A stretch of DNA of 60,976 nt from a virus (IMGVR_UViG_3300042922_000323:1-60976), one strand, 5' to 3'. Counted from the stretch's first letter, positions 2,113 to 60,795 are shown. Made by a program: numbers and translations. Notes: generated from the letters alone by a model not told the origin.

Positions 2113-2141
2113 TTGACTTTTTATAGGGTATACTATATAAT
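2113..2141 (+). promoter_or_regulatory. SigA-type promoter of putative antitoxin sRNA
   Basis: TTGACT-N17-TATAAT with no downstream plus-strand ORF before the terminator. Confidence 0.8.
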
Positions 2142-2147
2142 GTAAAT

Positions 2148-2235
2148 AAATTAATTAAACTTTTGTGTTGACATGTTTGCCACTATGTCACAATAAAAAC
2201 CCTTGAGAGATTCTAGTCCACTCAAGGGTTTTTTG
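2148..2235 (+). ncRNA. putative antisense antitoxin sRNA (~88 nt)
   Basis: Promoter plus terminator, no ORF; three segments (2158-2166, 2175-2183, 2185-2191) identical to + strand over the start region of the opposite peptide gene. Confidence 0.65.
2195..2235. terminator. bidirectional intrinsic terminator
   Basis: AAAAACCCTTGAG-loop-CTCAAGGGTTTTTT. Confidence 0.85.
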
Positions 2236-2240
2236 ATTGG

Positions 2241-2363
2241 TTAAAGCTTTTTCATCAGTTCAACAAGTAAATAAATAATCGCTGTTACCAGTGGAACTAG
2301 ACTTTTCCAATCACGTTGCTTTGGTGCTTTTAAATTTTTTAACTTTTGTTTTCCGTTTGCCAC
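2241..2363 (-). CDS. 40-aa basic/hydrophobic peptide, candidate type I toxin (not in ORF track)
   Basis: MANGKQKLKNLKAPKQRDWKSLVPLVTAIIYLLVELMKKL; RBS AAGGAGGTGA 7 nt before GTG. Confidence 0.8.
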   Translation of the reverse strand: MANGKQKLKNLKAPKQRDWKSLVPLVTAIIYLLVELMKKL

Positions 2364-2416
2364 AAAAATGTCACCTCCTTCCAGTTAAGAAGGCAGACAC
2401 ACCAAGCAACATAAAT

Positions 2417-2445
2417 ATTATACCATATTTTGGTTTTACTGTATA
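2417..2445 (-). promoter_or_regulatory. SigA-type promoter of the peptide gene
   Basis: TATACA-N17-TATAAT with extended -10 TG. Confidence 0.7.
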
Positions 2446-32209: not shown

Positions 32210-33277
32210 TTATTTAATATTATATAAAAATTCCTTATTAAGCTCACTTCTATATTCTTCAAATGTTATCTTTTCAACTTGTTTTAGTAAGCCCGCTTTT
32301 AATAAGTCATTTGCATCTTTGAACTGGATTTCTTCCTCGTCCAGTGTGTCAATACCATACCTGGCACATGGATACTTAATTACATTCACCCTTATTGGAG
32401 AATGTGTAGTAATCATGTTGTATGCTTGTAGGTTTGCTCTAACACCCCAGTAATCATTATCTAGGAACAGGTTAACAGTCTTTATATCTGCTTTCATAAG
32501 TTCTTGTACTTGCTCTTTAAATACTATCCTTCCAAGGATAGCCCCCGCAGGTATTCCTCCTTGGTAGCAAGCCATTGTGTCTGTTTCTGACTCATTTAAT
32601 GCAATCTCGGTAATATGTATGTTTGCCTGTTTAATATAGTATAGACCGTATACTATATCTTTCTTATCAAGGTTCTTCTCATTTAAAAAACCTTTTCTAC
32701 CGACAAACCTTCTTTTAACAAATCTTATTCTGCCATCAGAGGTTCTTATAGGAATTACCATAGATTGAGTTTGTTCATCAAACCCTATCTCGTACTTATC
32801 AAGTACCCTATCCTTAAATCCTCTGCTGTACATATAAGGGTGTCTCTTTCCTATATATTGTGCTATTTCTTCTTCTAAGTGGGAGCACCTTCTATCTTGA
32901 CTCTTCTTATCCAGTATAGCTTCAAGGTCAAGCTTGGGTCTCTGCTCTGCTGATAAAACTACGAAGTTTTTAAGGAGGAATTGCTCTCCCACAACTTCAT
33001 TTTTAAACCCACAGCAATGGGCTACTAATTGGGGCAAATTTCCAGTTTTTCCACAACTGAAACATTGGAATGTGTAAGGATAACTTGTCAGTATTCCAAA
33101 AGAAGGAGTACTCTCTTCTTCATAAGGACAACAACACATTAAGTTATCTCCGCTTGCTTTTACTTTGGTAAGAGCCGTTGTATTGCATTTGGCTTGACCA
33201 GACTCTTCATAATAAAGTCTTAACTCTTGTATTACTTCATCGATGTCTAAATATATTGTTGATAATATTGTGCCCAT
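32210..33277 (-). CDS. dnaG: DNA primase (CHC2 Zn finger + TOPRIM)
   Basis: CCPY...PSF...CFSCG, ESETD, FLDND. Confidence 0.9.
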   Translation of the reverse strand: MGTILSTIYLDIDEVIQELRLYYEESGQAKCNTTALTKVKASGDNLMCCCPYEEESTPSFGILTSYPYTFQCFSCGKTGNLPQLVAHCCGFKNEVVGEQFLLKNFVVLSAEQRPKLDLEAILDKKSQDRRCSHLEEEIAQYIGKRHPYMYSRGFKDRVLDKYEIGFDEQTQSMVIPIRTSDGRIRFVKRRFVGRKGFLNEKNLDKKDIVYGLYYIKQANIHITEIALNESETDTMACYQGGIPAGAILGRIVFKEQVQELMKADIKTVNLFLDNDYWGVRANLQAYNMITTHSPIRVNVIKYPCARYGIDTLDEEEIQFKDANDLLKAGLLKQVEKITFEEYRSELNKEFLYNIK

Positions 33278-58624: not shown

Positions 58625-59593
58625 TTAATTTTGTACTCTATTATTGACTACCCCTTTTATGCCCATCTCTATTGAGTGTGGCACTGTAGTTCCAGTCTGG
58701 TTTATATTCTTAAACACAATCTGAATGTTTTTATCAAATCGTGTCACAGAAACTATTGCTACACCACCTGTTCTTGCTAATAGCCCCATTGAAGCATACG
58801 AAGGTTCATGTTCAATATAATCAGAAGTCACAACCCCCGCCGAATTACATTCGATACGAGCTATTACACTTTGTAAATTCAAATCAGTTACTTCTAAAGT
58901 AAATGACTCTATTGTTGAATCCATGTTAACGTAGTTAGGTTGGTTGATAACCAAGTTGCACGTATCCTGTTCTGCCACCTGTTGCGTAGGGTCTTGCCAA
59001 TCAAATGACCAACTAAGCATATCTGAGGTATTCATATTAGTTACGTCAACTAGTGTAACAAACTCATATAGCAGGTACTTCTCTAGCCCACTATTGTTAT
59101 AGTACTGAACAACTATAGGCGTATTAGCTATAACGTCTTCATACACCTCTAACATTCTATACTCTGACATCTCCTTAACATGTGAACCTTGGCATATGTA
59201 CCTTGAACCTATCATAACGTCATAAGTGTCTTCTATGTTGTAACTTGTAAAACAAAGGTGAATACCTTTAAATTCACAATCAAATGGAGGTATGAAAACT
59301 GCTTGGTACATATTCTGAGTTGTAGTAATATGAACCATTCCGCCTGGTTGGAAGTTATATTTCTTTAGTGGGAAGTATGGGTGAGGAAGTTTACGAACAT
59401 CATGAACAGTATTCACATTGTCCACTGTCTCAACCCATGTAACGTTATCTACTTGCTTAACATCATTAACGGTGTCTACGACAACAACTTCATCCACTTT
59501 AGTAACTTCATCTACAGAGTTAACCTTTTTAAGAAGCTCAATGTTGTCAACATTCTCAACATTAGGCACATATGAAATTACAAATCCTGGCAT
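58625..59593 (-). CDS. virion protein with V-x-x periodic repeat
   Basis: VNSVDEVTKVDEVVVVDTVNDVKQVDNVTWVETVDNVNTVHDV. Confidence 0.65.
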   Translation of the reverse strand: MPGFVISYVPNVENVDNIELLKKVNSVDEVTKVDEVVVVDTVNDVKQVDNVTWVETVDNVNTVHDVRKLPHPYFPLKKYNFQPGGMVHITTTQNMYQAVFIPPFDCEFKGIHLCFTSYNIEDTYDVMIGSRYICQGSHVKEMSEYRMLEVYEDVIANTPIVVQYYNNSGLEKYLLYEFVTLVDVTNMNTSDMLSWSFDWQDPTQQVAEQDTCNLVINQPNYVNMDSTIESFTLEVTDLNLQSVIARIECNSAGVVTSDYIEHEPSYASMGLLARTGGVAIVSVTRFDKNIQIVFKNINQTGTTVPHSIEMGIKGVVNNRVQN

Positions 59594-60795
59594 TAATTCA
59601 CCCCCGTTACCGATGTTACTTTATCTAACTTGCCATTACTATCATAGATTAGACTTATTAGAATATTAAATAACACTTTCTCGCTATATACATCAGCGGG
59701 TTTAGGCAGGTAAGGTTTCAACTTATCAAGGCTATCATCCCACCCTGTCGTTGGACTATCAATGAGTGCAAAATTATCATTCCTCAGTCCAACATTCTCT
59801 TCCACTATTTGTTGCATTTGAGCTTTAGCCGCATCAAGTTCTTTCTGTAAATCCACTAACTTAACGGGGTCGGTTTCTGCGGCAATCTTAGCTTCAAGGT
59901 CTGGTACTGTGACGGTATTAAGCTTTATATAATTTTCTTTATTAGTTACATATGTAACAAAATCTTCATCTGTAAAGCCGGGAGGGTTAGGTAAGAACTT
60001 CTTTAGCTCTTTGTATGTATAGGTATTATCATCTTCCTCAATAAAGTACCTTGCCCTAAGTTTCTTGTTATCATCTGAAGCTTTTGTAACCATTGCAGTG
60101 GTTACGTCAGGGTGCTCTTTCAGAGCTATACGCAAGTTTCTCATGTATAGAACAAAATCAGTTTTATCCATAGCAAGTGGATTTTGCAAGTACTTTAAGA
60201 GTTCGTCATATGGCAAATCGGATAGCGGGTCTATCATGTAAACATTTCTTAACTCTTCATTCCTTATTTCTGCATAGTTCATCTGCTGTTTAGCGTTATC
60301 TCTGACTTCCTGTGAGTTCGAGGTATCCGCCTGAATATGCATATAGTACTCCCACTTACGTTTATTCCTTACATATTCAGCAAAATCAAGCCCACTCATT
60401 CCGTAAGGGTTAGGAGTAATTTCAGAAATAGGCTCAATCTTCATAACTACAATCTTAACAGAAGTAAGTTTTGAACCAGTTCTTATAAGGTTAACCTTTT
60501 CCTTCAAAAACTGCCCAAACATAAGTACAACCGCAGTAAGTAACTTTGGGTTTGAAGGGTCTTTATGTTCAAAGGTAACCTCGTAGTCATTGGACTCTAA
60601 GGCATTGAGTACGTTTTTATCGTACACAATATTGTTATTTCCTTCACCAGGGTCGGATATATAACCCGACCCCGTTGAATTGTTTACAGACTCTATAAGT
60701 TTTGCAAGCTGAGTACCGTTAAGTGCTTTCTGAACCTCTTTATTAACTATCTCCAATATTGGAAATATAAGCATTTCACTGGTAGACCCTAACAT
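59593..60795 (-). CDS. structural-module protein with helical repeats
   Basis: 400 aa, RBS AGGGAGTG. Confidence 0.7.
   Translation of the reverse strand: MLGSTSEMLIFPILEIVNKEVQKALNGTQLAKLIESVNNSTGSGYISDPGEGNNNIVYDKNVLNALESNDYEVTFEHKDPSNPKLLTAVVLMFGQFLKEKVNLIRTGSKLTSVKIVVMKIEPISEITPNPYGMSGLDFAEYVRNKRKWEYYMHIQADTSNSQEVRDNAKQQMNYAEIRNEELRNVYMIDPLSDLPYDELLKYLQNPLAMDKTDFVLYMRNLRIALKEHPDVTTAMVTKASDDNKKLRARYFIEEDDNTYTYKELKKFLPNPPGFTDEDFVTYVTNKENYIKLNTVTVPDLEAKIAAETDPVKLVDLQKELDAAKAQMQQIVEENVGLRNDNFALIDSPTTGWDDSLDKLKPYLPKPADVYSEKVLFNILISLIYDSNGKLDKVTSVTGVN

Follow-up and report, generated by a model that had tools for sequence, protein, structure and literature searches.

A candidate par-type type I toxin-antitoxin cassette with a peptide unlike Fst in a large plasmid-like phage

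On balance, an insert of ~330 bases (2113-2445) in the analysed window, the initial 60,976 nt of an IMG/VR virus record (124,976 nt; completeness rating 100%), appears to encode a type I toxin-antitoxin module of the par type. Its toxin would not be Fst, and it would serve for maintenance or possibly for abortive infection in a phage-plasmid-like element. The hallmarks of par at the RNA level are all predicted in silico, the 5'-end helix on the basis of a predicted transcription start. The genes around the cassette all lie on the + strand and those upstream stop at 2091, just ahead of it; the peptide gene runs in the opposite direction, which argues for a self-contained unit. Further upstream, an AbrB/SpoVT-domain protein of 76 aa (1645-1875, + strand; Pfam MazE_antitoxin, E = 7e-9; PHROG 'antitoxin') is encoded outside the cassette and without an adjacent toxin gene. 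Directly downstream lies an ORF of 140 aa (2512-2934, + strand) for which no homologues were found in the libraries. Its listed GTG start falls within its own SD-like sequence, and no good sigma-A promoter was found between the cassette's terminator and this ORF.

The peptide gene (2241-2363, - strand) consists of 40 codons with a GTG start and a TAA stop. An earlier note on this DNA had described such a minus-strand gene, with a C-terminal helix, a perfect ribosome binding site and a promoter of its own, and its placement proved exact. The net charge of residues 1-20 is +6; residues 21-37 (SLVPLVTAIIYLLVELM) make up a single hydrophobic C-terminal helix, followed by KKL; the C-terminus thus reads ELMKKL. 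The mRNA promoter (2417-2445, - strand) is composed of a -35 element TATACA (2445-2440), a 17-nt spacer and an extended -10 element TGG-TATAAT (2425-2417), with a 10/12 match plus the TG, and the predicted mRNA is ~215 nt long. After a leader of 30 nt, the Shine-Dalgarno sequence AAGGAGGTGA (2380-2371) precedes the GTG start by 7 nt. This 10-mer is found only twice in the 125-kb genome, and seven of the ten GGAGGTGA sites in the phage genome precede ORFs; the ribosome binding site of the peptide is among the strongest in the phage.

The mRNA leader was predicted to be structured. The earlier note had seen a leader stem partly occluding the SD; the stem is present, but 'partly' is too weak a word, as GCCUUCUU (2394-2387) pairs with AAGGAGGU (2380-2373) in a predicted 8-bp stem that covers the whole SD (stem-loop 2373-2394, - strand). 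In the predicted fold of the mRNA alone, the SD is unpaired with a probability of 0.01. A long-range helix of 11 bp, which rests on the predicted transcription start, joins GUUGCUUGGUG (2410-2400) at the predicted 5' end with CACCAAAGCAAC in codons 13-17 (2327-2315). A local hairpin with arms at 2369-2362 and 2349-2342 was predicted to expose GGCAAAC in a 12-nt loop, and its 3' arm is the target of block 1, the first of three repeated sequence blocks described below. The fold of the first 100 nt has a z-score of -3.9 and is better than all 200 shuffles.

Convergent to this gene, the + strand carries a putative small RNA. Its promoter (2113-2141), with a -35 element TTGACT (2113-2118), a 17-nt spacer and a -10 element TATAAT (2136-2141), matches at 11 of 12 positions and is the best sigma-A match within the first 8 kb. 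With a start predicted near A2148, the RNA would extend over ~88 nt (2148-2236) and comprise a single-stranded 5' end of 18 nt, a hairpin (2166-2192) and a terminator hairpin. In the predicted fold the free 5' end bears block 1, while the loop of the hairpin displays block 2 (GUUUGCCAC), as the earlier note had stated, and its 3' arm contains block 3. The minimum free energy of -24.6 kcal/mol (z = -4.2) is better than that of all 200 shuffles. No ORF with an SD was found in the small-RNA region, and no Rfam family matched the RNA at threshold.

Both transcripts are predicted to end at one bidirectional intrinsic terminator (2195-2236, both strands; stem 2200-2228) with an A-tract on one flank and a T-tract on the other. 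The GC-rich stem of 13 bp lies ~50 nt past the small-RNA start and is followed by six T on the + strand; on the - strand it is followed by five T, and the peptide ORF ends 12 nt before it. The convergence of the gene with a promoter-driven, ORF-less RNA of ~88 nt on a shared terminator, as proposed in the earlier note, is thus borne out in prediction. The transcripts overlap at the terminator only, with a full complementarity of ~36-41 nt, and cofolding yielded an intermolecular duplex of 36 bp. The + strand promoter and terminator might instead form a leader, an attenuator or the end of the upstream operon, with the repeats as a relic of duplication that do not pair and with control exerted by read-through antisense transcription. 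The + strand genes ending at 2091, the lack of a strong sigma-A promoter for the next + strand ORF (2512) and the fact that the terminator would also halt upstream transcripts all fit this explanation. However, the 13-bp stem with six U makes a strong terminator, placed 50 nt downstream of a consensus promoter, and with the evidence from the repeats given below we regard the explanation as quite improbable.

The small RNA and the start region of the mRNA share three sequence blocks. Block 1 (AACTTTTGT, 9 nt) occurs at 2158-2166 and 2341-2349, block 2 (GTTTGCCAC, 9 nt) at 2175-2183 and 2355-2363, and block 3 (ATGTCAC, 7 nt) at 2185-2191 and 2368-2374; the earlier note was right in every string and position. 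The small-RNA copy thus spans 2158-2191 (+ strand). In the mRNA copy (2341-2374, - strand), block 1 corresponds to codons 5-8 (2349-2341), block 2 to the GUG start and codons 2-3 (2363-2355) and block 3 to the 3' edge of the SD with the spacer (2374-2368). The blocks are exact and collinear, and the spacers between them differ across the copies. A local alignment of 2145-2200 with 2320-2400 reached a score of 34, the maximum among 6,234 pairs of the same geometry genome-wide (mean 13.5, sd 2.6, z ~8). That three exact blocks coincide with the SD, the start codon and the early codons while the spacers have diverged argues against a mere relic of duplication in an operon leader.

Repeats flanking terminators were also sought around 94 bidirectional terminators of the phage and four relatives, and the cassette was the only genuine par-like case. 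Besides the cassette, scores above 30 were obtained for two artefacts, both rejected: a match at 32353 in one genome (G003) inside an internally repetitive protein gene, and a match in low-complexity sequence. The second-best direct repeat genome-wide for the cassette geometry (59421-59700, score 32) consists of two copies of ~35 nt, ~175 nt apart, in or beside an open frame of 87 codons (59406-59666, + strand).

Direct repeats transcribed convergently make the two RNAs complementary at the blocks. The first 50 nt of the small RNA and the adjacent start region were predicted to form a duplex of -32.3 kcal/mol, which ranked second among 8,326 90-nt windows covering both strands (mean -15.8, sd 3.9) once the small RNA's own antisense strand had been removed. 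In the plain duplex scan, several unrelated genomic windows came to between -30 and -34 kcal/mol; these competitors are irregular duplexes within coding regions. After subtraction of the opening costs, the net energy amounted to about -12.4 kcal/mol for blocks 1-3 and -13.6 kcal/mol for blocks 1 and 2, and block 3 alone became unfavourable. The predicted unpaired probabilities in the small RNA were 0.74 for block 1, 0.82 for block 2 and 0.06 for block 3. The target of block 2 also sits in a loop of the mRNA, so that block 2 is predicted to be looped in both RNAs, a further point against the leader explanation. RNAcofold of the two 5' parts indicated no gain (-2.6 kcal/mol, similar to shuffles) because this program would have to treat pairing within the 5'-end helix as a pseudoknot; duplex energy plus opening costs was used in its place.

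The blocks could alternatively be DNA operator sites, bound by a regulator of phage or host origin, or have arisen by chance. The AbrB-like protein encoded 300 nt upstream (1645-1875) would be a candidate for such a regulator, and several AT-rich windows reach similar raw duplex energies. Against this, the copies are located at +1 to +45 and at +36 to +80 of two promoters and in opposite orientation to transcription, which is no operator geometry, and the repeat score (z ~8) is the genome maximum. We consider this alternative highly improbable and regard antisense pairing as the preferred reading of the blocks.

In par loci, convergent promoters face a bidirectional terminator whose loops begin the RNA-RNA contact, the direct repeats DRa and DRb sequester the start region of the toxin gene, which in fst is also a GUG, and the toxin mRNA folds into a 5' stem-loop over the SD and an upstream helix over its 5' end (PMC7472228). 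The earlier note had recognized a par architecture, and the RNA-level features on this list are all predicted for the cassette. Like par of the Enterococcus faecalis plasmid pAD1 (RNA I/fst and RNA II), it possesses convergent promoters, one bidirectional terminator that provides complementary 3' stem-loops, and direct repeats that, read oppositely, would bring the small RNA over the SD and the GUG start. The predicted SD-covering stem of the mRNA is the counterpart of the 5'-SL and the 5'-end helix may be that of the 5'-UH, the latter resting on the predicted transcription start. The terminator loops of both RNAs contain CUAG, which is of the YUNR type, although about one loop in five would carry such a 4-nt motif by chance alone; the YUNR U-turn in the terminator loop of the par toxin RNA is not present in every member (PMC7472228). 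The toxin mRNAs are of similar length (~215 nt in the cassette, ~230 nt in par), and both systems reside on mobile carriers, par on plasmid pAD1 and the cassette on a 125-kb phage.

The cassette also differs from par. Its small RNA is longer (~88 nt versus ~40-65 nt) and has an additional hairpin that displays block 2, and the repeat comprises three blocks where par has two. The peptide differs as well. Fst-type peptides consist of an N-terminal transmembrane helix with the motif PXXXG(C) and a charged C-terminal tail (PMC7472228), whereas the cassette peptide has a Lys-rich N-terminus, a C-terminal transmembrane helix with PLVTA in place of PXXXG, and KKL as its only tail. No Fst model or family in Pfam or NCBIfam matched the peptide, in agreement with the earlier view that it is not Fst-like.

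A search for homologues by words among 5.8 billion proteins and by HMMER among 1.84 billion proteins returned the peptide itself and one biased match of 760 aa. With tblastn, a single match of E = 5 was obtained in phages and none in plasmids. The PDB sequences, Pfam, NCBIfam, PHROGs and PADLOC yielded nothing for the peptide, and scores in the ESM Atlas were all below 0.9. A single-peptide search of 401 genomes of the class Bacilli led to chance matches only; one of the Bacilli matches was rejected as it lies out of frame inside a histidine-biosynthesis-like gene. The cassette DNA gave short chance matches in blastn against phages, and the 17-mer GTTTGCCACNATGTCAC occurred 18 times in IMG/VR, with no match extending past the 17-mer. 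The back-translated string LVPLVTAII recovered 4 viral and 44 metagenome stretches, all of them chance occurrences inside other proteins or in wrong frames; a 36-aa frame with a similar string was rejected since it lies inside a tail-fibre-like gene. The earlier note had proposed to look by tblastn for homologues that keep the repeats: a second par-like cassette was found in no collection searched. A family-alignment search for related loci found nothing, its search pattern being ill-suited to the phage peptide.

The peptide is nevertheless quite probably a distant member of an uncharted family of the Paenibacillales. A six-frame search of Paenibacillaceae genomes resulted in one marginal match in a 39-aa gene of the same layout, and iteration over 401 Paenibacillales genomes led to ~15 clean loci (L059-L078, P0004). 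The family peptides have 36-39 aa and consist of a methionine, 6-10 Lys/Arg residues, the motif L-x-L-V/T-T-A-I-I/V-S-L and a terminal IINLII..R. Their genes have a GGAGGTGA SD, a TTGAC(A/T)-17-TATAAT promoter and almost no leader. When an HMM was built from the family with the phage peptide left out, the phage ORF ranked first among 2,426 stop-to-stop ORFs of the phage (E = 1e-4). The match spans ~20 mostly hydrophobic residues, and such similarity can mislead, as illustrated by a chance out-of-frame look-alike in the metagenomes. The peptide, unfamiliar to the earlier note, has no match in the family databases searched but is not a full orphan, given these probable relatives. Between close pairs of family genes, synonymous differences equal or exceed the non-synonymous ones, which fits coding. 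Six of the seven family peptides checked are missing from a collection of 15 billion proteins, and hence the family is essentially unannotated.

All 15 family loci contain an extended -10 element (TGnTATAAT or TGnTATACT) on the antisense strand 58-88 nt past the stop codon, for which the chance expectation is 0.05 per locus; the same element was found on the sense strand in none of them. A convergent antisense RNA is therefore predicted to be a conserved feature of the family. In the phage cassette, 100 nt separate the stop codon from the antisense -10 element. Family and cassette thus have in common a peptide of 36-40 aa, a Lys/Arg-rich N-terminus, the motif L-x-L-V/T-T-A-I-I/V-x-L, the GGAGGTGA SD and an antisense promoter 58-100 nt past the stop. 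In contrast to the phage copy, the relatives lack the long leader, the start-region repeats and a clear bidirectional terminator: no direct repeats were detected in the start regions of the Paenibacillales loci, and the duplex of their predicted antisense RNA with the start region was no better than background. Conversely, the family peptides continue into the longer C-terminal IINLII..R, and their loci adjoin a second small hydrophobic peptide gene downstream; the phage cassette has neither. Several of the loci also adjoin an HTH_17 gene and an integrase, which suggests that they are located at prophage ends.

Type I systems with 3'-overlapping antitoxins are known from prophages of Bacillus subtilis, namely txpA/RatA, bsrG/SR4, bsrE/SR5 and yonT/SR6. 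The cassette resembles them in its small membrane peptide, in its location on a prophage-like element of a spore-forming Firmicute and in its convergent antisense RNA with a 3' overlap, and the Paenibacillales relatives of the peptide resemble this 3'-overlap type. It differs from them in that its overlap is confined to the terminator (~40 nt) and is complemented by a predicted trans-type pairing of the start region through direct repeats, the solution adopted by par, and its peptide shares no sequence similarity with the Bacillus prophage toxins. Taken together, and tentatively, one family of small-peptide toxins may have been combined with two antisense designs, a 3' overlap in the chromosomes and prophages of the Paenibacillales and the full par type in the phage, where it would form an addiction module of a 125-kb phage-plasmid. 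Control of the par type would then be portable, arising by duplication of the start region, and not tied to Fst/Ldr.

The carrier was also recovered in an independent assembly as a contig of 124,814 nt, probably from the source soil metagenome. Its break point differs from that of the IMG/VR record, which is labelled 'linear': position 1200 of the window corresponds to position 86,068 of this Logan contig. The phage genome is hence circular or circularly permuted, and position 1 of the window is no physical end. The phage (39% GC) encodes two tyrosine recombinases. It shares an SNF2 helicase with four viral relatives (58-63% identity), two of which are classed as proviruses, and a helicase of 60% identity is encoded on the Paenibacillus plasmid described next. 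With the 'plasmid' unnamed1 of Paenibacillus sp. S-38 (complete, 120,923 bp), 37 of the 131 phage ORFs of at least 100 aa are shared, among them the structural gene block. The recombinases, the provirus relatives and the sharing with the S-38 plasmid point to a Firmicute host resembling Paenibacillus and to a large phage with a temperate or plasmid-like lifestyle. Judged from gene content, the clade of the phage and the S-38 plasmid probably lives as phage-plasmids. The gap in GC content (39% versus 52%) indicates that the hosts of the two probably differ.

The cassette's peptide was absent from the five relatives searched (the four viruses and the Paenibacillus plasmid), the small genes flanking the cassette are not conserved in any of the five, and a search for related loci via two neighbouring ORFs retrieved nothing. 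Among contigs of other soil runs, the cassette was not covered outside the probable source run, and no natural variants were found. A look for RNA runs containing the locus likewise returned none. The earlier note had left the choice between an addiction and an abortive-infection module. The type I module as such is supported in silico, and since the element appears temperate or plasmid-like, addiction is favoured over abortive infection.

The sequence itself supplies the anatomy, the repeat and pairing statistics and the predicted folds. We infer the transcripts, the relative stabilities of the two RNAs, the toxicity of the peptide and its biological role, and on this basis the cassette might operate as follows. 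The moderately strong, extended -10 promoter would produce the structured mRNA of ~215 nt, which would code for a tail-anchored membrane peptide of 40 aa. On its own, this mRNA would be translationally silent owing to the 8-bp stem over the whole SD, and the helix that buries its 5' end would protect it. The stronger, near-consensus promoter would meanwhile deliver the convergent RNA of ~88 nt. First contact would be made by the complementary terminator hairpins and by a loop-loop interaction of GUUUGCC with GGCAAAC, and the three blocks would then zip up, covering the SD edge together with the GUG start and codons 5-8, and exclude ribosomes. Upon loss of the element or a halt in its transcription, the small RNA would decay first and the stable mRNA would be translated; the peptide would damage the membrane, with post-segregational killing and possibly abortive infection as the outcome.

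Toxicity is not evident from the sequence, and the same cassette anatomy would be compatible with a genuine antisense control of a non-toxic peptide. The small RNA would in that case set only the timing and amount of a regulated small membrane protein, with a function in superinfection exclusion, lysis timing or modulation of a host membrane protein. The Paenibacillales loci, which pair the peptide with a second hydrophobic peptide, could likewise reflect a two-peptide membrane function. Yet the combination of triple silencing, by an SD stem, a buried 5' end and antisense RNA over the start region, with a bidirectional terminator that serves both transcripts is so far on record for toxic peptides (PMC7472228), and the cassette stands alone and opposite to the surrounding early genes. 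A non-toxic peptide is less likely than a toxic one, but it is the foremost of the rival readings.

If confirmed, the par-type module would demonstrate that a toxin with no relation to Fst can come under the complete regulatory design of par, and large phage-plasmids of spore-forming soil bacteria would gain an RNA-controlled maintenance module. The mechanism and its logic would be those of the well-studied par system and represent no new kind of biology. Confirmation would also flag the unannotated Paenibacillales family, with its conserved antisense promoter, as candidate toxins.

The two-peptide locus of this family (L059-L078, L055-L058) was encountered in Paenibacillales genomes and in JGI metagenome contigs, where it is unannotated. 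A strong promoter precedes the gene for the Lys/Arg-rich transmembrane peptide of 36-39 aa. A structured spacer, in which GGTGAAATACAAGG is frequent, separates it from the gene for another hydrophobic peptide, ~30 aa long. The antisense extended -10 element of the 15 family loci lies between the two peptide genes in every case, and we view the locus as a candidate type I toxin-antitoxin family with a 3' overlap. One locus (L070, at ~1972058 of G341:C1) encodes a peptide of 37 aa in the reverse layout, with an N-terminal helix RLVPLLTAIIQLI, a Lys/Arg-rich C-terminal tail and a good SD. The helix motif of this peptide resembles that of the phage peptide, while its layout is Fst-like.
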